This document shows positions 2,950-23,366 of a stretch of 64,000 nucleotides of DNA, piece by piece; position 1 is the stretch's first letter; every line of letters begins with the position of its first letter. The notes beneath the pieces were generated by a model. That model made no database searches. It saw only the letters and a program-made list of their open reading frames with translations, and was not told the DNA's origin. Made by a program: the position numbers and the translations under genes. The stretch lies in assembly GCA_001822065.1 (NCBI GenBank), contig MHPJ01000001.1:6870-70869 (forward strand), written 5' to 3'. The DNA comes from Candidatus Staskawiczbacteria bacterium RIFOXYB1_FULL_37_44 (GTDB lineage Bacteria; Patescibacteriota; Minisyncoccia; Minisyncoccales; Staskawiczbacteraceae).

Positions 2950-2985
2950 CATCTTGTAAATAGTAAAGCTTTACTAAATACAAGA
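2950..2985. repeat. 36-bp internally palindromic repeat, copy 1 (catcttgtaaatagtaaagctttactaaatacaaga)
   Basis: Identical to 3581-3616. Core agtaaagctttact is a perfect 14-bp palindrome with outer arms tcttgta/tacaaga. Confidence 0.95.
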
Positions 2986-3035
2986 CGAGATGTAAAATAG
3001 AATAGAGAAAACGAATAAAATAATAAAAAGATAAA

Positions 3036-3563
3036 ATGAAAATATCAATTACCGATGAATTTCTTTGGGATGTTTATAAGCTTTTAGAAAAAGCAGGCGA
3101 TGTCGCAGATTCTGCATTTAAACCCATAACGATGAGAAATTATCTGCCGGGAGAAGAATGTCCAATTTTTAAGAAATATAAGCACGATAAAAATAAAAGA
3201 AAATTTAGTAATTTAATGTATTATCTTAAAAAGAATGGTTATATCAAAGCAAAAAAAATAGAAAATGGGCAAGGAATAATGATTACAAAGGAGGGAATAG
3301 ATAAGGCGCTAAAAGCAAGTTTTGTTTTAGACGGACATAAAAAGAGAAAAGACGGAAAATGGGTTATGTTAATTTTTGATATACCTCAAAAGCAAAAAAC
3401 AGCTAGAATGTTGTTGCGAAGTATTTTAAGTAATTTAGGGTATAAATTGTTTCAGCAAAGCGTTTGGATTTCACCTTATGATATTTCAGAAAAAACAGAG
3501 AAATTGTTGCAACTGCATTCCCTGGAAAATTATATTAAAATATTTTTAATTGAAAAGCTATAA
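3036..3563 (+). CDS. PaaX-like regulator (N-terminal wHTH plus C-terminal PaaX_C/Cas2-like ferredoxin-fold domain)
   Basis: 'DGKWVMLIFDIPQKQKTARMLLRSILSNLGYKLFQQSVWISPYD' matches the W-x-[IV]-x-F-D-[IV]-P...R...L...GF..LQ.SVW..P signature of PaaX C-domains and Cas2-fold proteins. Confidence 0.6.
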   Translation: MKISITDEFLWDVYKLLEKAGDVADSAFKPITMRNYLPGEECPIFKKYKHDKNKRKFSNLMYYLKKNGYIKAKKIENGQGIMITKEGIDKALKASFVLDGHKKRKDGKWVMLIFDIPQKQKTARMLLRSILSNLGYKLFQQSVWISPYDISEKTEKLLQLHSLENYIKIFLIEKL

Positions 3564-3580
3564 TATTTTACGCTTATTGG

Positions 3581-3616
3581 CATCTTGTAAATAGTAAAGC
3601 TTTACTAAATACAAGA
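3581..3616. repeat. 36-bp internally palindromic repeat, copy 2
   Basis: 36/36 identical to 2950-2985. Begins 17 nt after the stop of the PaaX-like gene. Confidence 0.95.
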
Positions 3617-11124: not shown

Positions 11125-11938
11125 CATTAAAAAAATTTTAAAACCAGCCAGGCGAATAAAACTGGAAAAAGAAATTAAAGCCTCTATAAAAGGCGGGGTT
11201 TTGATGTTTATGAAAAATAATCCCTTGACAGAAACTCCAAAATTTGGCTTTTGGAAAATAATATTTTCTCAAAAATTAAAACCCGCTTACATTTCAATAT
11301 TGTCTTTAGTGGCAGTTTTGCTGGTGTCTGGAGCAGTGAGCGCGCAGGCCAGTTTGGCGCTTCCCGGAGATATTCTTTATCCCGTGAAAGTTGGAGTTAA
11401 TGAAAAGGTCCTGCAAGTTCTGGCTTTTTCCGACCAGGCGAAAATAAAATTAAGCGTCCGTTTGGCTGAAACGCGTTTAAAAGAAGCTGAAAAATTGGTG
11501 GTGGAAAACAGGATAACCAAAGACAACCAAATGCAAATTAATAATAATTTTAGCGCAAAAGCAGATGAGGTTTCAAAATCTATAAACAAACTAAATAGAG
11601 AAAAAATGGAGAATAGCGCGCAGAAAATCGCTGATGATTTTAATAAAACTTTAGAAATCCATACCAAAGTTTTAGAAAAAATCCAGCAGGAGAAAGATAA
11701 ATCTGACAAAGCGCGCGATAAAAATCGGGAAAATGTAGACTCTATAATAAACAGAGTAAACAGCGTCAGGGATAAAATTAACGCTGATATAAAAGAAAAT
11801 AAAATCAAAAATGAAAAGAAAGCAGAAGAAATAAGGCAAAAAGCAAATGAGCAAATTCAAAAAATAAAAGATAAGATAGAAAGCAACAAAGCAGAAAATA
11901 ATACTGAAAATAATATAGAAAATAATACTGAAAAATGA
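11114..11938 (+). CDS. Single-pass membrane protein, DUF5667-like (putative anti-sigma partner)
   Basis: Overlaps the sigma gene by 11 nt. TM helix 'AYISILSLVAVLLVSGAVSAQA'. 'LPGDILYPVKVGVNE...RLAETRLKEAEKL' followed by a charged coiled-coil tail. Confidence 0.6.
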   Translation: MNNNIKKILKPARRIKLEKEIKASIKGGVLMFMKNNPLTETPKFGFWKIIFSQKLKPAYISILSLVAVLLVSGAVSAQASLALPGDILYPVKVGVNEKVLQVLAFSDQAKIKLSVRLAETRLKEAEKLVVENRITKDNQMQINNNFSAKADEVSKSINKLNREKMENSAQKIADDFNKTLEIHTKVLEKIQQEKDKSDKARDKNRENVDSIINRVNSVRDKINADIKENKIKNEKKAEEIRQKANEQIQKIKDKIESNKAENNTENNIENNTEK

Positions 11939-11979
11939 GCTATACGTAATTTTCACGATCGTAAATTTCTTGTATAGCT
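11938..11979. repeat. CGATCG-centred palindromic repeat, copy B1
   Basis: agctatac-gtaattttcacgatcgtaaatttctt-gtatagct, with perfectly complementary 8-bp outer arms. Aligns with 12176-12216 and 12822-12862. Confidence 0.85.
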
Positions 11980-12005
11980 GGGAAAACTTGAAAAATAATA
12001 AAAAA

Positions 12006-12040
12006 GGCGTCCCGATCCCATAAGAGGGAGGGACGCTTTT
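12006..12040 (+). terminator. Rho-independent terminator
   Basis: ggcgtccc...gggacgc stem followed by tttt. Sits downstream of the gene at 11114-11938. Confidence 0.7.
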
Positions 12041-12175
12041 GGTCTTTCGCGCAAGTCGGCGTACATTGCCTAAACCTCAAAAATTGCGAGGAATTCTTCG
12101 ACTGTTTTGCAAAAATTATCAAACAATTTCTTGTGATGTCACGACTGTGAGAACTAAGATTTAACTGTATTTTAG

Positions 12176-12216
12176 TTATACAATAAATTCACGATCGTAA
12201 ATTTTACGTATGGCTG
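12176..12216. repeat. CGATCG-centred palindromic repeat, copy B2
   Basis: ttatacaataaattcacgatcgtaaattttacgtatggctg, immediately upstream of a promoter-like motif and the PaaX-like gene. Confidence 0.8.
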
Positions 12217-12217
12217 A

Positions 12218-12232
12218 TATTTGTGATAAAAT
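12218..12232 (+). promoter_or_regulatory. Extended -10-like motif tatttgtgataaaat
   Basis: This 15-mer is identical to 12922-12936 and contains TG-n-TAAAAT. It lies 2 nt after repeat B2. Confidence 0.45.
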
Positions 12233-12252
12233 ATTATAATAACTATTTTAAG

Positions 12253-12792
12253 ATGGCTGCTTTAAAAGAAAAAATATTATTATTGCTTTTTGGCGGGCTT
12301 GCTTTTGGTTGCGCTTATACTCCGCAAAAACAGTGGAAAGTTATTAAAACTATATCTGTTGAATGGAAAAAGATAGATAAAAAAGAATTATTTGCAGAAA
12401 TTCACAGATTGTATAGGTCAAAATTGGTGAAAAGAATAACCAATTCAGACGGAACACTCACGTTTATTTTAACTGAAAAAGGTAAATTAAGGGCCCTTAC
12501 TTATAGTTTTGAACATATGAAAATAGAAAAGAAAGACTGGGACGGCAAATGGCGATTTATTGTTTTTGATGTTCCCGAAAAGTTTAGAACCGGACGAGAT
12601 GCGCTAAGATGGAAAATTAAAAAACTTGGATTCTATGAATTACAAAAAAGCGTTTTTATTTTTCCTTATAAATGCGAAGACGAGATAAATTTTATTATAG
12701 AATTTTTTGGAATAAGAAAATATGTCAGGTATGGAATAATAGATTTTATTGATAATAAGGCGCACTTAAAACAAATTTTTGGGCTAAAATGA
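12253..12792 (+). CDS. PaaX-like regulator (wHTH plus PaaX_C/Cas2-like fold), paralogue of 3036-3563
   Basis: 'DGKWRFIVFDVPEKFRTGRDALRWKIKKLGFYELQKSVFIFPY'. The ATG at 12253 is preferred over the tracked GTG at 12223, which lies inside the promoter-like motif. Confidence 0.6.
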   Translation: MAALKEKILLLLFGGLAFGCAYTPQKQWKVIKTISVEWKKIDKKELFAEIHRLYRSKLVKRITNSDGTLTFILTEKGKLRALTYSFEHMKIEKKDWDGKWRFIVFDVPEKFRTGRDALRWKIKKLGFYELQKSVFIFPYKCEDEINFIIEFFGIRKYVRYGIIDFIDNKAHLKQIFGLK

Positions 12793-12821
12793 GAAAAATT
12801 ATAAAATAATCAGAAAAAACC

Positions 12822-12862
12822 AGCTATACGATAAATTCACGATCGTGAAAATTACGTATGGC
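12822..12862. repeat. CGATCG-centred palindromic repeat, copy B3
   Basis: agctatacgataaattcacgatcgtgaaaattacgtatggc. The core ttcacgatcgtgaa is a perfect 14-bp palindrome. Confidence 0.85.
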
Positions 12863-12921
12863 AGGTTTCTTTATCTTACCCTTACCTTGCCTTTTTATTT
12901 ATTTTTTGTTTATATTTTTTG

Positions 12922-12942: not shown

Positions 12943-13512
12943 ATGAATTTCTGGGAAAAGAATAAATTATTTTTTGCAATAATTTTAGGAGCTGTAATAA
13001 TTGGAATTTTTGTTTATTTTAGCTTGGAAAATCAAAAAAAGATTGCTTCGTCGCTCGAAGCTCCTCGCAATGACGTTGTGGGAAAATCCGTGGAGGACGG
13101 GCCTCCCCTGACTGGAACTCCAATAGCTTCCGCGTGCGGGGTACATGAAAATACGTTTGTTACAAAAGTAATTGACGGCGATACGGTTGTGGTTGAGGGA
13201 GGATATCATGTGCGGCTTTTGGGAATGGACGCAGACGAAAAAAATTATCCTTGCTATGAGCCGGCTAAAACCCGACTTGAAAATTTAGTTTTGGGAAAAA
13301 TGGTAAAATTGGAAAAAGACAGAACAGATTTGGATCAGTATGGCAGGTGTTTGCGGTATATTTTTATCGGAAATACAAATATTGGCGCGCAGCTGGTAAA
13401 AGAAGGCATGGCAATTGCCAGATTTTATAATCCCGACATAAAATATAAAACAGAAATTGCCGAGGCCGAAAAGCGGGCGCAACAAAACAAAGCCGGCTGT
13501 AAATGGAAATGA
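12943..13512 (+). CDS. Membrane-anchored staphylococcal-nuclease-like (SNase/thermonuclease) protein
   Basis: N-terminal TM helix. 'VIDGDTVVVEGGYHVRLLGMDADE', 'GRCLRYIF' and 'NIGAQLVKEGMA' are SNase-fold motifs. Confidence 0.8.
   Translation: MNFWEKNKLFFAIILGAVIIGIFVYFSLENQKKIASSLEAPRNDVVGKSVEDGPPLTGTPIASACGVHENTFVTKVIDGDTVVVEGGYHVRLLGMDADEKNYPCYEPAKTRLENLVLGKMVKLEKDRTDLDQYGRCLRYIFIGNTNIGAQLVKEGMAIARFYNPDIKYKTEIAEAEKRAQQNKAGCKWK
13041..13075. repeat. GC-rich 35-bp element (gattgcttcgtcgctcgaagctcctcgcaatgacg) in frame in the nuclease gene
   Basis: 33/35 identical to 13757-13791. It is the reverse complement of the left arm of 16406-16438. Confidence 0.85.
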
Positions 13513-14957
13513 AATTTTTTGAAAAAAATCAAATTTTCGCATTTTTGGCGAGTCTTTCTTGTACTCTTGTTTTAGGCTTTTTTGTTTGGATCGCGTTTTT
13601 GAGTTCAAATAATTATTCTTTTATTTTTAACAAGGTTTTGGGGCAAGCCAATAAAATCGGTTATAAATTTTTTTCGGCAACAGTGAGCTTGCCTAATACC
13701 CAAGTTGAGGAAATAGTTCAGGAAACTGATTCTGCGCAAGATATAGTGCCAAATGAGATTGCTTCCTCGCCCGAAGCTCCTCGCAATGACGAAACAACAG
13801 AACAAGAAAGGCAAAATTTGCTTGATGACATTGCGGAAAAATTAGATGTAATTCAGCAAAAAGTTGATGAACTTGTTGCGCAATCAAAAACCGCAGACGA
13901 ACTGAAAATGGAAGAAGAAATTAAAAAAGACGAGGAAAAAAATACGGTTGTTTGCGCAGGGCAAATAAATATAAATACAGCTTCCGCAGAAGAATTGGAT
14001 AAAATGGCTCAAGTTGGTCCGGTAACGGCTCAAAAAATAATACAAGCCCGTCCATTTTATTCGCTTAATGATTTGTTAAGAGTGGGCGGGATAGGAGAAA
14101 TAACTTTACGAAAAATAATAGAGCAGGGGTGCGCTTATGTTGAATTTGTGACGCCGGCCGTTGCGCCGGCGCAGGTTGTTTATCCAAAAATTTTAATTTC
14201 AGAAGCGCAAATTTTGCCGATTAATCAAAGATTTGTCGAGCTTTACAACTCAAATTCAACAGATATTGATTTGACCAATTGGTATTTGCAAAGGAAAACA
14301 GCAACGGGCGAGGATTATTCAAGTTTTGTTACAAAAAATGATTTTGCGGGAAAAATAATTTTGGCAAATTCATATTTTTTAATTTCCCGGCAAATTGAAA
14401 ATGCCGATATTTTGCAAGAAATAATTTTAAGCGATAACAATTCTTTGGTTCTAAAAAATCCGGCGGGAGATACTTCTGATATTATGGATACCGCCAGCCC
14501 AAGCTCTGGCCAAAGTCTTTGCCTGCTGGACGCATGGGAAGTTTGTTCGCCAACTCCCAAAGCTTCCAATACAGTTTTTACTGAGCCGACTCCCCCGTCC
14601 TCAGATTCAACTTCTCCTGATCCCGATGTAATTTTACCAAGCATTGTAATATATAAAGTAATCGATATGGGCGGAGAATTTAGTATTGATTTGGCATTTT
14701 CAGAAAAAGTAAAGTACGAAATAATTATTGAATTTGGCGAAACTGAAATCAAAAAATGGTCTGGCGAAGCAAAAAATCCTCAACCAAAAATTTGGGATGG
14801 AAAAGATTCTTCGGGCACAATTGTTCCAGATGGCGTTTACACAATTAAAATTGAGATTACAGATTATACTCCAGAAAAAAATTTTGTTACTGACACAAGC
14901 AAAACAATTATAATTGATAATTCTCCAAACCTTGACTCGGGAGATTATAATCAGTAA
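13503..14957 (+). CDS. ComEA-like HhH DNA-binding protein with a lamin-tail domain and a FlgD-Ig-like C-terminus
   Basis: TM helix. 'ININTASAEELDKMAQVGPVTAQKIIQARPFYSLNDLLRVGGIGEITLRKI' (ComEA HhH). 'ISEAQILPINQRFVELYNSNSTDIDLTNWYLQRK' (LTD). 'IWDGKDSSGTIVPDGVYTIKIEITD' (FlgD-Ig-like). Confidence 0.75.
   Translation: MEMKFFEKNQIFAFLASLSCTLVLGFFVWIAFLSSNNYSFIFNKVLGQANKIGYKFFSATVSLPNTQVEEIVQETDSAQDIVPNEIASSPEAPRNDETTEQERQNLLDDIAEKLDVIQQKVDELVAQSKTADELKMEEEIKKDEEKNTVVCAGQININTASAEELDKMAQVGPVTAQKIIQARPFYSLNDLLRVGGIGEITLRKIIEQGCAYVEFVTPAVAPAQVVYPKILISEAQILPINQRFVELYNSNSTDIDLTNWYLQRKTATGEDYSSFVTKNDFAGKIILANSYFLISRQIENADILQEIILSDNNSLVLKNPAGDTSDIMDTASPSSGQSLCLLDAWEVCSPTPKASNTVFTEPTPPSSDSTSPDPDVILPSIVIYKVIDMGGEFSIDLAFSEKVKYEIIIEFGETEIKKWSGEAKNPQPKIWDGKDSSGTIVPDGVYTIKIEITDYTPEKNFVTDTSKTIIIDNSPNLDSGDYNQ
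13757..13791. repeat. GC-rich 35-bp element, second copy, in frame in the ComEA-like gene
   Basis: gattgcttcctcgcccgaagctcctcgcaatgacg. Encodes 'IASSPEAPRNDE', compared with 'IASSLEAPRNDV' in the neighbouring gene. Confidence 0.85.
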
Positions 14958-17217: not shown

Positions 17218-17232
17218 TAACGCTCGGCAACT

Positions 17233-17303
17233 GTCATCTCCGCGAAAGCGGAGATCCAGAGTAAGTGCATTTGACCATGGATTCCCGCTTTCGCGGGAAT
17301 GAC
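17233..17303. repeat. Intergenic GC-rich element made of two inverted self-hairpin arms
   Basis: gtcatctccgcgaaagcggagatcca (17233-17258) and tggattcccgctttcgcgggaatgac (17278-17303). Shares the gtcat...atccagagt / ...aatgac ends with 16406-16466. Confidence 0.8.
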
Positions 17304-17359
17304 AACAAGAATTGTAACAAATAGCGAGTTTGAGCGTCATACATATATACAGCACAAAT

Positions 17360-20269: not shown

Positions 20270-20273
20270 TTGC

Positions 20274-20296
20274 TTGTTGAAGTCAGACTTCAACAA
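20274..20296. repeat. REP-like palindrome, left copy
   Basis: ttgttgaagtc-a-gacttcaacaa (11-bp arms). Confidence 0.9.
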
Positions 20297-20324
20297 ACTT
20301 TAAAAAGATGCTATTATAAAGATA

Positions 20325-21026
20325 ATGCGCAAAGAACCATATACAGTCGGCGATTTTATTCATGTGTATAATCGCGGAAATCGGAAACAACCAATAGTTC
20401 TTGATACAAAAGATCAGTGGCGCTTTCTTTTGATGCTCCGTTATTTTAACGATGAGCATTCTTCTTCAAATCCTCTGCGTTACCTGTTGAAGTCTGACTT
20501 CAACAGGGCTTTCGAGTGGCCGCCCGATTGGCCGGCGCACAAACCATTGGTCAATATTGTTTGTTTTACGCTTATGCCAAATCATTACCATTTAATTTTA
20601 GAAGAAATTTCAGAGGGGGGCATAACAAAATTTATGAGAAAATTTGGAACAGGAATGACAAATTATTTTAATACAAAACATAAAGAATCGGGCAGATTAT
20701 TTCAAGGGGCGTTTAAAGCAAAAAGAATTGATGCGGAGAATTATCTTTCTTATCTTACAGTATACATTCAAGTTAAAAATGTTTTTGAATTATATGCAGG
20801 CGGGATTAAAAAAGCAGTAAATAATTTTGACGATGCTTTTCGGTGGGCAGTTGAATATCCATATTCCAGTCTTGCCGATTATGCCGATAATCGAAATTCT
20901 CCAATTGTTGAAAAAAGTGTTGCAGGCGGCATGTTTTCTTCTGTTGGAGAGTATCGAAATTTTTCTAAACAGTGTATGCTGAATATGAATTTGCAGGATA
21001 AACTTGGCGATCTCGCATTTGAATAA
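20325..21026 (+). CDS. REP-associated tyrosine transposase (RAYT) / IS200-like Y1 HUH transposase
   Basis: 'HVYNRGNRKQPI', HUH motif 'MPNHYHLILEE', catalytic-Tyr region 'YLTVYIQVKN', 'EYPYSSLADY'. Confidence 0.8.
   Translation: MRKEPYTVGDFIHVYNRGNRKQPIVLDTKDQWRFLLMLRYFNDEHSSSNPLRYLLKSDFNRAFEWPPDWPAHKPLVNIVCFTLMPNHYHLILEEISEGGITKFMRKFGTGMTNYFNTKHKESGRLFQGAFKAKRIDAENYLSYLTVYIQVKNVFELYAGGIKKAVNNFDDAFRWAVEYPYSSLADYADNRNSPIVEKSVAGGMFSSVGEYRNFSKQCMLNMNLQDKLGDLAFE
20483..20507. repeat. REP-like palindrome, internal copy in opposite orientation
   Basis: cctgttgaagtc-t-gacttcaacagg (12-bp arms). Encodes 'LLKSDFNR' within the RAYT ORF. Confidence 0.9.
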
Positions 21027-21055
21027 GCTTGTTGAAGTCAGACTTCAACAAGCTT
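21025..21055. repeat. REP-like palindrome, right copy (15-bp arms)
   Basis: aagcttgttgaagtc-a-gacttcaacaagctt. Sits between the convergent stops of the RAYT gene and the O-antigen-ligase-like gene. Confidence 0.9.
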
Positions 21056-23366
21056 AAAAACTTTTAATAAATTGTTCAATCTGGGGTTTTAGTTCGGGAT
21101 TTGTTTTAATTATTTCTTGAGCTAATTGTTTTGCCATTACATAGTTCCCCAATTCTTTGTGGCAAAGCATAATAGATGTTTTGTATTGCACTTCTCCCGG
21201 ATTTATTTCAGATAATTTTTGATAAAGAGGCAGCATTTCTTTGTAATTTTCAGTTTCCAAGTATGCTGCTACAAGCTGTCTTAACGCAATTTCACTATCT
21301 TCCACGGAATATCCATTCTCTTTTGCCTTTTCTGCAAATTCTTTTCCAGCTTTAATGTCTCCTAAATAAATATTAATTAATCCGGAAATCCAAAGACATT
21401 CACGGCTTTGGGGGAAGGTTTTTAGGCAATAGACCGATTCTTCTTTTGCTCTTTTCAAATCTTCTAAGGATACAGTAGCCATAAAAGAACTAAAAAGAAT
21501 TGTGGGGTTTCTTGGGCTTAATTTCAGGGCTTTATTGAAAGCGTCATTGGATTTGTTTATAAGCTCCGGATCGTTTTTTTCTTTTGCAATTGTTGCCAAA
21601 GATTCTCCCAAACGGAGCCAATTTTTGTAATCATATGGTTGGAGCTCAGTATTTTTTTGGGAAATTTCTGACACTTTTTTTGAAAGCTGGGCATTTTCAT
21701 CTGGATGTTTAATTATTCTGTTTATCAACATATTTAGGTATACAGAATTTGTGTAAGGAAGAAAAAAGGTATTTATTTTTGACTGTTTGTCTAAAATTTT
21801 GGAAGCGCCCTGCCAGTCGTTATATTCGTTTGCCAGCGTTTGGGCAATAATAATTTGTTTATTCATCTGCAAAGGAAAAAAGTTATATTGCCAAAGGAAT
21901 ATTATTAAAACCAGAAATAAAACGCAAAGAGCCGGAATTTTGATAAATTTTAATCTATTTGTTATTACTTCGCTCCTCCCGCCTTCGCCAAGGCTTCGGC
22001 GGGCATGCGCAATAACGTCGACTTGATTTGCATTTGCAGAGTAAATTAAATGTATAGAGTAGGCCGCCAAAAAGAAAAAAATAAGCATAATTGCAAAGCC
22101 GTCAATGGATGCCAAAGACGCTATAGAAAAAGCCAAAAGCCCTGCTTGCAGTCCGTTGGCAGCCGGGTATTGATGTTTAATTTTTTGCAGACCCCAAAAA
22201 AGAGAAAATAAAAAAACAAGATAAAAAATTAAAGCAAAAATTCCGGAATCAACTAAAATTTGTATCAAGTAATTATGCGCCCTGTCAAAATCTTTTAGGT
22301 CTTTCATTATGGGCAAAGTAGGGTCATAATGTTTGTTGAAGGCGACATAAAAGTTTTCCGGGCCGTATCCAAAAAATGGCCTTTCCAAAAAGGCTGATAT
22401 TGATATTTTCCATGCAGATGTTCTTGCCGGATCAGCTGAAAAACCACGCGTTAAGGATGTTATTCTTATTGTCGGTTCTTTTAATAAATTAGGCCATTTT
22501 CCATAAATTTGCGGGTGGCTGCTTAAAAAAAAGATAAAAATGAGAAGTACAATAGGTAAAATTATTGCGCCCGTTTTTATTTTTTTCATCTTTTTAGGAT
22601 TAAAAATTAAAAACCAAAAAATTCCAATCGAAAGTCCTAAAAAAGCGGCTCTGCCTTGCGCTATAAAAATAATTGAAAAGGAATAGAAAATAACCAAAAA
22701 TAAATAAAAATATTTTTTTATATTGCGTTTTTCTAAGATAAAGAAAGAAAACGCCACAAAGAACATGGGCAGAAGATAAAGAGAAAGTATTAATGAATTT
22801 CCTAGGGTTGAGCTTGGTCTTGTGTTTGTGTGAGTAAAAATATTATCTAAAACCCCGAATAGTTGGAAAATTGCCACCAATCCCACCAAAAATCCGATAA
22901 CCAGAGAAAAGTCAAGAAGTTTTTTCCAGTGTTCTTTTTTGACAATTGCCAAAGTTAAAAATAAAAAAAGAACGAAAAAAGTAAAATTTATAAAGCCCGC
23001 GCCTCTTTCGGGAGTTCCCCATAAGCTACGAGATACGTCGAGTGAAAGCAGTGTAGAAACGAAAACAATAAAGAAATAAGCCAAAAGCGAAATTATTGGT
23101 ATAAAAACCGCAGAGCGCGGGTTTAACGCCTCTTTCCAGCCCGAGGCTGGTCCGCCTTGGTCGGATATTTTTTTTAAGCTTATTTTTTCTTTAAACAAGT
23201 AAATAAAACCTAAAATAGCCAGTATCGATCTGAACGCAATTGCTTGCGTATATGATGGGGGTGTAAACCATGGCGGGATATTTAACGCCGGCAAGGCCAA
23301 CATTATAAAAAATCCGATTATATATATCAAATAAGAGATTTTATTATTTTCGTTGATTTTAGACAT
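21054..23366 (-). CDS. O-antigen ligase/polymerase-like (Wzy_C-type) polytopic membrane protein fused to C-terminal TPR repeats
   Basis: More than 10 predicted TM helices in the N-terminal 450 aa. TPR-like C-terminal third ('AFNKALKLSPRNPT', 'YLGDIKAGKEFAEKAKE'). Two GC-rich in-frame inserts. Confidence 0.65.
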   Translation of the reverse strand: MSKINENNKISYLIYIIGFFIMLALPALNIPPWFTPPSYTQAIAFRSILAILGFIYLFKEKISLKKISDQGGPASGWKEALNPRSAVFIPIISLLAYFFIVFVSTLLSLDVSRSLWGTPERGAGFINFTFFVLFLFLTLAIVKKEHWKKLLDFSLVIGFLVGLVAIFQLFGVLDNIFTHTNTRPSSTLGNSLILSLYLLPMFFVAFSFFILEKRNIKKYFYLFLVIFYSFSIIFIAQGRAAFLGLSIGIFWFLIFNPKKMKKIKTGAIILPIVLLIFIFFLSSHPQIYGKWPNLLKEPTIRITSLTRGFSADPARTSAWKISISAFLERPFFGYGPENFYVAFNKHYDPTLPIMKDLKDFDRAHNYLIQILVDSGIFALIFYLVFLFSLFWGLQKIKHQYPAANGLQAGLLAFSIASLASIDGFAIMLIFFFLAAYSIHLIYSANANQVDVIAHARRSLGEGGRSEVITNRLKFIKIPALCVLFLVLIIFLWQYNFFPLQMNKQIIIAQTLANEYNDWQGASKILDKQSKINTFFLPYTNSVYLNMLINRIIKHPDENAQLSKKVSEISQKNTELQPYDYKNWLRLGESLATIAKEKNDPELINKSNDAFNKALKLSPRNPTILFSSFMATVSLEDLKRAKEESVYCLKTFPQSRECLWISGLINIYLGDIKAGKEFAEKAKENGYSVEDSEIALRQLVAAYLETENYKEMLPLYQKLSEINPGEVQYKTSIMLCHKELGNYVMAKQLAQEIIKTNPELKPQIEQFIKSF

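Follow-up and report, generated by a model that had tools for sequence, protein, structure and literature searches.

REPtrons, in which genes for REP-associated tyrosine transposases (RAYTs, or TnpA-REP) are bordered by palindromes of the REP (repetitive extragenic palindrome) or BIME (bacterial interspersed mosaic element) type, have been described in E. coli, Stenotrophomonas, Marinomonas and Pseudomonas (PMC3333891, PMC8266576, PMC5581495). A conserved guide tetranucleotide (GTAG or CGTC) on the 5′ side of the hairpin foot defines REPs (PMC6006769, PMC8266576, PMC3733652). Group 3 REPs are short perfect palindromes with loops of 3-4 nt, and the REPs of the Marinomonas REPtron cluster near its gene (PMC8266576). 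On average, 16-mers flanking RAYTs occur about 41 times per replicon, compared with about 5 times for housekeeping genes, and housekeeping-like traits (a single copy, vertical inheritance) set RAYTs apart from IS200 elements (PMC5581495). Palindromic sequences residing in protein-coding genes are mentioned for Rickettsia, as Rickettsia palindromic elements (RPEs; PMC1779305). Here we analyze a transposase-like gene with one palindrome on each side and a third within its coding sequence (CDS), located in a 64-kb stretch of contig MHPJ01000001.1 of Candidatus Staskawiczbacteria bacterium RIFOXYB1_FULL_37_44. This whole stretch is referred to as the window; all coordinates are window positions, and loci elsewhere are given by L numbers. 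We find that in relatives of this gene the three palindromes change in concert and that the in-gene copy is constrained as DNA. On balance we consider it probable, judging from sequence comparison and a structural model, that the gene belongs to a new RAYT-like family centered on Patescibacteria and makes up, together with its three hairpins, a REPtron-like unit in which the hairpins are presumed sites of the encoded protein.

Three palindromes that change in concert

Two exact copies of the 25-mer gcttgttgaagtcagacttcaacaa border the gene. The first (20272-20296) is separated by 28 nt from the ATG at 20325, and the second (21027-21051) adjoins the TAA stop codon (21024-21026) on its 3′ side. 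The third palindrome, cctgttgaagtcTgacttcaacagg (20483-20507), lies within the open reading frame (ORF) and is read as the peptide LLKSDFNR. The positions given for all three in the first-pass annotation are exact. Their common core, GTTGAAGTCNGACTTCAAC, has the form GTTGAAGTC-N-GACTTCAAC and has exactly three matches in the window when up to two mismatches are allowed, with 0.00 matches expected from dinucleotide shuffles of the window (n = 100); a search of the window at up to three mismatches did not find a fourth copy. All three copies fold on either strand, with stems of 10-15 bp and z-scores of -2.8 to -8.0. The loop base is an A in the upstream and downstream copies and a T in the in-gene copy; the latter is therefore the reverse complement of the flanking copies, and the opposite orientation previously noted for this gene is correct.

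We then considered homologous genes, taken from 80 loci fetched from metagenomes and from L025, L039, L090 and L093, which together with the window represent 74 distinct genes of 47-79% identity. In 61 of the 74 genes there is an in-gene hairpin with at least 7 bp and with its center at about nt 170-185 of the gene, most often at nt 179. The upstream hairpin is centered a median of 28 nt 5′ of the ATG and the downstream hairpin a median of 15 nt 3′ of the stop codon, which it often overlaps, and at most of the 74 loci the same palindrome borders both sides of the gene. The hairpin sequence varies from locus to locus, yet within one locus it is common to all three sites: GTTGAAGTC in the window, TGTGGAAGTC in L094, GTTGATGAC in L113, CTGTCGGTATC in L154, TGTTGACATC in L168, GGAGAGGAC in L143 and TTGAGGCC in L167, with one variant likewise common to the three sites of L105. 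For 51 loci with less than 90% protein identity, the in-gene 21-mer matches the upstream region of its own locus at 18.8 of 21 positions; permuting the upstream regions among the loci lowered this to 14.67 +/- 0.24 of 21, and the observed value was reached in 0 of 20,000 permutations. Because the three hairpins change together in dozens of relatives, the in-gene copy belongs to the unit as a conserved component and is no accident.

The peptide specified by the hairpin varies with the hairpin (LLKSDFN, LWKSDFH, PLMTVIN, LSVSDTD, VERTVLS or MERSNLS). At one locus (L161:300-360) the hairpin lies about 16 nt further 3′ than usual; here translation uses the other open frame and gives VEVKLQQ (within AVEVKLQQQ), and the hairpin matches the flanking ones of that locus at 21 of 21 positions. 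Among 10 genes with the exact core and a mean identity of about 56%, third codon positions at identical amino acids are 84% identical in the hairpin versus 46% in the rest of the gene. The residues encoded by the hairpin belong to the α1-β2 loop (residues 41-75), where the structural model described below has its lowest confidence (mean pLDDT of 55 at residues 51-60). The loop differs in length among distant relatives (32-38% identity), being 13-16 residues shorter in several, and in the family alignment the residues opposite LLKSDFNR are variable, for instance LWKSDFY or RLKLDFNQS. Thus the in-gene copy is under constraint at the DNA level, in a disordered loop, and what is kept in homologs is a DNA hairpin that tracks the flanking copies and not a peptide.

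Two proposals of the first-pass annotation did not survive these comparisons. It had suggested that the in-gene copy may mark a self-targeted insertion, possibly visible as extra residues at 52-62. A recent self-insertion is ruled out, as the family alignment contains no extra segment here and 61 of 74 genes have the hairpin at this codon position. The inverted orientation, which had been presented as a feature of the unit, is incidental: across homologs the in-gene copy has the same orientation as the upstream copy at 23 loci and is inverted at 17, ruling out a fixed orientation.

Protein family and chromosomal setting

The gene product looks like a Y1/HUH single-stranded DNA (ssDNA) endonuclease/transposase-fold protein that is seemingly catalytically intact. 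The motifs from which it had been named an HUH/Y1 transposase (NHYHLILEE, YIQVKN and YPYSS) are present in the translation, and H87, H89 and Y147 are invariant among 97 homologs. The Pfam family Y1_Tnp (PF01797) aligns to residues 76-149, and no more, with a score of 24.5 bits against a cut-off of 23. A search of PDB sequences with the family profile returned nothing significant (E of about 0.7 to ISDra2 TnpA). An AlphaFold model was built with the 97 homologs as input (pLDDT 88, pTM 0.87); its best solved match in Foldseek is 4er8_A, the E. coli TnpA-REP (RAYT) protein with its REP hairpin (E = 5.8e-5, probability 1.00), followed by the TnpA proteins of IS608, ISDra2 and IS200. The predicted fold thus upholds the earlier assignment. 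The protein has more than 400 close relatives (about 237 aa, 53-80% identity), and an exhaustive profile search yielded 427 clusters at the 50% identity level with E <= 1e-30; the named sources are Patescibacteria lineages and Omnitrophota. By sequence and predicted structure, this appears to be a large, Patescibacteria-centered family related to RAYT (TnpA-REP). A protein of 100% identity places the window in a Candidatus Staskawiczbacteria MAG (metagenome-assembled genome) of the Patescibacteria (candidate phyla radiation). PADLOC and PHROGs gave no matches, and the window contains no paralog of the gene.

The closest chromosomal comparison is with L093, whose gene is 79% identical. In L093 and the window, the convergent genes on the downstream side are homologous to each other, and visible sequence conservation extends to the end of the ORF on the upstream side, together with the terminator hairpin of that ORF. 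The GTTGAAGTC hairpin of the window is replaced in L093 by GTAGAAGTC/GTGGAAGTC at each of the three sites, and the in-gene copy of L093 is the exact reverse complement of its own asymmetric upstream copy. Ten further loci (L098, L099, L102, L104, L105, L107, L109, L120, L143 and L146), with gene identities of 56-78% and different hairpins, share same-side downstream homologs of 55-82% identity; the downstream neighbors in this group are comFC-dprA-comM. Since the neighbors are the same and the hairpins differ, the three hairpins must have changed in place and in concert, and concerted change is thus seen also where the chromosomal neighbors stay the same. Because relatives retain the same chromosomal neighbors, the gene itself looks vertically inherited and domesticated and unlike an insertion sequence (IS).

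In many relatives, including one in an Omnitrophota metagenome-assembled genome (MAG), the family gene is directly followed, in the same direction, by comFC-like, dprA, comM and yraN genes (L174:10001-14201, L175:7292-11256, L176:10001-13662 and L177:10001-14432, as well as L098, L099, L102, L104, L109 and L143). The order is not always the same: in L146 the family gene lies between dprA and comM, and in L118 and L095 it follows yraN. These four neighbors are genes of ssDNA uptake and recombination. L177 carries a fourth copy of its hairpin, between comM and yraN. Neither dprA nor comM was found in the 64-kb window, so that the competence linkage of the relatives does not extend to the window locus. 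Here the neighbor on the 3′ side is a convergent Wzy_C/TPR gene (ORF 21054..23366, minus strand), and the stem of the downstream hairpin takes in both stop codons, the TAA of the plus-strand gene and the TTA (TAA) of its neighbor. The features of the locus are listed in Table 1.

Table 1. Features of the transposase-like gene and its palindromes (window positions)
Feature	Position	Strand	Details and basis
Upstream palindrome copy	20274..20296		core at 20276-20294 with A as loop base; stem of 10 bp on either strand
Candidate sigma-70-type promoter	20290..20317	+	consensus scan alone
ORF, 233 aa, predicted Y1/HUH transposase fold, RAYT-like	20325..21026	+	Pfam, AlphaFold model, Foldseek, conserved residues
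In-gene palindrome copy	20483..20507		core 20486-20504; loop base T; 11-bp stem; z = -5.4
Residues L54-R61 (LLKSDFNR) coded by in-gene palindrome	20483..20507	+	in the α1-β2 loop of the model
HUH motif, H87-Y88-H89	20583-20591	+	translation; H87 and H89 invariant
Candidate catalytic tyrosine, Y147	20763-20765	+	invariant in 97 sequences
Downstream palindrome copy	21024..21056		25-mer 21027-51; core 21031-49; extended 15-bp stem; -15.1 kcal/mol; z = -8.0

Dispersed copies, promoter overlap and competing explanations

To place the palindrome in a wider setting, the exact 19-mer core was scanned for in a genome collection with one representative genome per species. It occurs in 92 stretches of these representatives, some 70 of them from low-GC MAGs that represent many Patescibacteria lineages; about 10-20 chance matches are expected, and the matches in high-GC coding sequence are those. 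Other Patescibacteria MAGs hold 3-8 exact copies each (some 4-8). The palindrome is therefore dispersed in other Patescibacteria genomes and not confined to these loci, a dispersal on which the REPtron-like reading of the first-pass annotation depended. One MAG has both a family gene (L090) and separate palindrome copies (L031 and L084). Around the homologous loci, extra hairpins of the type proper to each locus recur in the flanks at a density of 0.55 per 10 kb (9 in 165 kb in total) versus 0.05 for unrelated cores.

Many of the dispersed 19-mers lie within long ORFs, where their translation is LLKSDFN or VEVRLQQ; a TGA is present in the third frame. In an RNase HII gene (L008:2206-2248) there are two palindrome units, one of which corresponds to 8 extra residues in an alignment to PDB homologs, and in an rsmA gene (L057:2569-2587) the same kind of alignment indicates that VEVRLQQ takes the place of a native loop, lengthening the protein by one residue overall. 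By eye, in-frame 19-mers were also seen in genes for UvrA (two genomes, same site) and for CysRS-like and TsaD-like proteins (L068:5679-5724, L044:2659-2677, L087:6954-7007 and L030:5712-5730), as well as in a gene for an RsmH-like protein. The in-frame copy of the transposase gene is a case of this wider tolerance, but one that is conserved in its family and matched to the flanks. The stems of dispersed copies often continue beyond the conserved core with locus-specific, perfectly complementary sequence (L003:2845-2883, L079:5319-5353 and L092:940-980, among others): at least 5 extra base pairs are present in 12.5% of dispersed copies versus 1.3% when flanks are re-paired between copies, and gene-proximal copies have stems of up to 16-25 bp. 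Such extended stems could mean that the palindrome grows outward, snap-back copying being one way for this to happen.

Part of the upstream hairpin coincides with the -35 element or the spacer of what is predicted to be the gene's own promoter. In the window, a consensus scan located a candidate -35 box (TCAACA, 20290-20295) within the right hairpin arm, followed by a 16-nt spacer and a TG-extended -10 box (TATTAT, 20312-20317) located 7 nt 5′ of the ATG. In many relatives the left arm of the hairpin provides the sequence TTGAxx, separated by exactly 17 nt from a TATAAT-like box, the end of which is about 6 nt 5′ of the ATG; the distance from TTGAxx to the -10 box peaks at 17 nt (12 loci) and is 16-18 nt at 19 of 65 loci. 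The predicted mRNA looks leaderless or nearly so. For an internal promoter at the in-gene copy, sense or antisense, inspection by eye found no -10 box at the right spacing.

These observations provide the basis for a model of the unit. The protein most likely recognizes the perfect palindrome of 19-25 nt as its own site. Y1 transposases form dimers, with two hairpins held per dimer, and a dimeric protein would bind the hairpins as extruded or single-stranded DNA. Binding to the promoter copy would shut off transcription of a potentially harmful nuclease, and the in-gene copy, about 200 bp away, may serve as the second site of the dimer, aiding repression. We infer from this arrangement that the gene is autoregulated by hairpin binding. 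The gene-proximal copies would represent a matched master set and a source of occasional dispersed copies. With respect to the REPtron-like reading of the first-pass annotation, the fold, the cognate borders and the dispersal were borne out; a GTAG-type tag and extra copies in the window were not found. Its further idea that the right-hand copy may double as a bidirectional terminator agrees with the geometry of the stem, but the stem has neither a T-tract nor a terminator call.

Several observations weigh against this model. The copy number of the palindrome is low, with no extra copies in 63 kb of the window, and the MAGs richest in the exact palindrome have no family gene beside those copies; for these two reasons the link between enzyme and repeat is supported but not proven. 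No conserved GTAG-like tag was found 5′ of the hairpins at dispersed or gene-proximal copies: GTTG, GTAG and GTGG occur at the hairpins solely as paired stem bases, and the sequence outside the stem is variable. The RAYT model of NCBIfam (REP_Tyr_transpos, NF047646), aligned at residues 76-150, scores 24.6 bits and so falls short of its cut-off of 80. The in-gene copy is absent from 13 of the 74 genes, where the flanking hairpins are usually kept, and from an Omnitrophota member with intact catalytic motifs that has the flanking pair (L176:9880-10840), and at least one member (L174, P0050; L174:9880-10840) has intact catalytic motifs and no hairpins at all; hairpins missing from some members are therefore not indispensable. 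The promoter is a consensus match, and its -35 box lies in the right arm in the window and in the left arm in most relatives. Finally, gene conversion without any function could be the source of the concerted change.

The alternative that fares best, although we regard it as unlikely, is that the hairpins are host cis-elements independent of the protein (a -35 module upstream; a bidirectional terminator or mRNA-stabilizing stem downstream) that are alike through gene conversion, with the in-gene copy as a tolerated by-product. The TTGAxx of the left arm at consensus spacing to the -10 box and the position of the downstream stem between convergent stop codons fit such roles, two unrelated PaaX_M genes in the window are also bordered by their own palindromes, and some family members have no hairpins. 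However, this explanation does not account for the retention, in 61 of 74 genes, of a third copy with a perfect stem at one codon position, nor for a lineage-specific type of hairpin at each gene. The downstream stem, moreover, has no T-tract and was not called by a terminator scan, and the nearest structural relative of the protein is an enzyme crystallized on exactly such a hairpin.

We think it quite improbable that the palindromes act at the RNA level, where the in-gene and downstream copies would limit expression from within the mRNA through ribosome pausing, an RNase III-type site or mutual pairing. The upstream copy, which would not be transcribed, co-varies just as tightly as the others. 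Rfam contains no family scoring above threshold at the gene and its hairpins, and a weak miRNA-like match is the upstream copy paired with the in-gene copy, nothing more. This is despite the stability of the stems and a predicted transcription start 3′ of the upstream copy, which would leave the in-gene and downstream copies as the ones transcribed.

Highly improbable, in our judgment, is an autonomous IS of the IS200/IS605 type, about 780 bp long, with the flanking hairpins as its ends and the in-gene hairpin as a relic or alternative end. The Pfam match to Y1_Tnp and the likeness of the fold to the TnpA proteins of IS608, ISDra2 and IS200 are compatible with an IS, and hairpins border the CDS as they do in IS200/IS605; many homologs are also found on contigs of about 1 kb, though short contigs are usual in that collection. 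Against this, neighbors are conserved across genes of 56-80% identity and the flanking genes are similarly diverged, there is one copy with no paralog in the window, tnpB is absent, one and the same perfect palindrome is found at both ends in place of distinct imperfect left and right ends, and the hairpins have changed in place at a syntenic site. The remaining alternative, that the in-gene palindrome reflects conservation of an LLKSDFN motif at the protein level or chance, can be dismissed even though many homologs have K, D, F and N here, as it is ruled out by the shuffles, the permutations, the freedom of the peptide to vary with the hairpin (in L161 even in another frame), the freezing of synonymous sites in the hairpin alone and the location in a loop that the model predicts with low confidence and that distant relatives have in shorter form or lack.

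A broader version of the REPtron-like model can be offered tentatively, and we hold it to be possible and no stronger than that. The hairpin in the protein's own frame and promoter may constitute a self-sensing switch of domesticated Y1 nucleases throughout the Patescibacteria; the same pair of enzyme and hairpin may seed or convert the in-frame palindromes of essential genes (RNase HII, UvrA, RsmA and others), and may be functionally tied to comFC-dprA-comM-yraN, the neighbors of many family members.

The window contains further repeats. Two paralogous small ORFs (3036..3563 and 12223..12792) encode a PaaX_M Cas2-like domain (69 and 78 bits), and each is bordered just 5′ of its start and 3′ of its stop by a long palindrome of its own. 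The first (region 2950-3616) has a pair of 36-nt copies that are 100% identical (2950-2985 and 3581-3616), and the second (region 11916-12865) has a family of 43-66 nt palindromes with copies at 11916, 12152 and 12800. Genes bordered by their own palindrome thus number three in the window, from two unrelated protein families. A GC-rich hairpin repeat, GATTGCTTCGTCGCTCGAAGCTCCTCGCAATGACG, is found in copies that are 90% identical at 13035-13075 and 13751-13791, in frame in two adjacent ORFs (ASSLEAPRNDV and ASSPEAPRNDE), and a separate pair of 27-nt inverted repeats lies at 17232-17304.

Comparison with known systems

REP-RAYT systems are known mainly from Proteobacteria, and the control of RAYTs and the spread of REPs are open questions for which the unit described here offers a compact system. 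Its family is large and resides in ultra-small genomes. As the presumed site is found in the gene's own promoter and CDS and co-evolves there, the family supplies dozens of natural protein-hairpin pairs for tests of specificity and autoregulation. The unit also indicates that short hairpin repeats can persist in reading frames through selection at the DNA level, which bears on protein annotation and on how sequence conservation is read in these organisms. While the REPtron is itself a known kind of unit, what is new is a RAYT-like family in Patescibacteria and Omnitrophota with its cognate palindrome in its own promoter and frame. Our literature searches found nothing relevant that links RAYT or REP to the candidate phyla radiation or Patescibacteria, and neither an in-CDS co-varying copy nor a promoter-built copy was found in the REPtron literature searched.

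The Patescibacteria unit resembles REPtrons in the Y1/HUH fold and in a cognate palindrome at each side of the gene. The present gene, like those of REPtrons, appears to be single-copy, vertically inherited and housekeeping-like, and in both the type of palindrome is lineage-specific and matched to the gene; the palindromes here are short and perfect, as are Group 3 REPs. The differences are that the hosts are Patescibacteria or Omnitrophota and not Proteobacteria, that no conserved GTAG or CGTC lies outside the stem, and that each MAG has 0-8 exact copies, in contrast to tens to hundreds. In addition, the protein is longer, with an α1-β2 loop of about 35 residues and a C-terminal helical extension, and scores far below the NCBIfam cut-off for RAYTs. 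Finally, a third conserved copy co-varies within the CDS, and the upstream copy appears to be built into the promoter.

IS200/IS605 elements (IS608, ISDra2 and IS200) share the catalytic fold and have subterminal hairpins around the transposase gene, and in IS200 the end hairpins also limit expression. Their hairpins, however, are distinct and imperfect and go with guide tetranucleotides, and these mobile elements occur in multiple copies, whereas the present unit has identical perfect palindromes, conserved synteny and an in-gene copy. RPEs, for their part, are in-frame insertions of about 100-150 bp in protein-coding genes, without a known cognate enzyme. In both cases palindromic repeats are tolerated in ORFs and read as peptide. 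In contrast to RPEs, the palindromes described here measure 19-25 nt and often replace loop residues with little change in length, and one of them resides in the gene of its presumed cognate enzyme.

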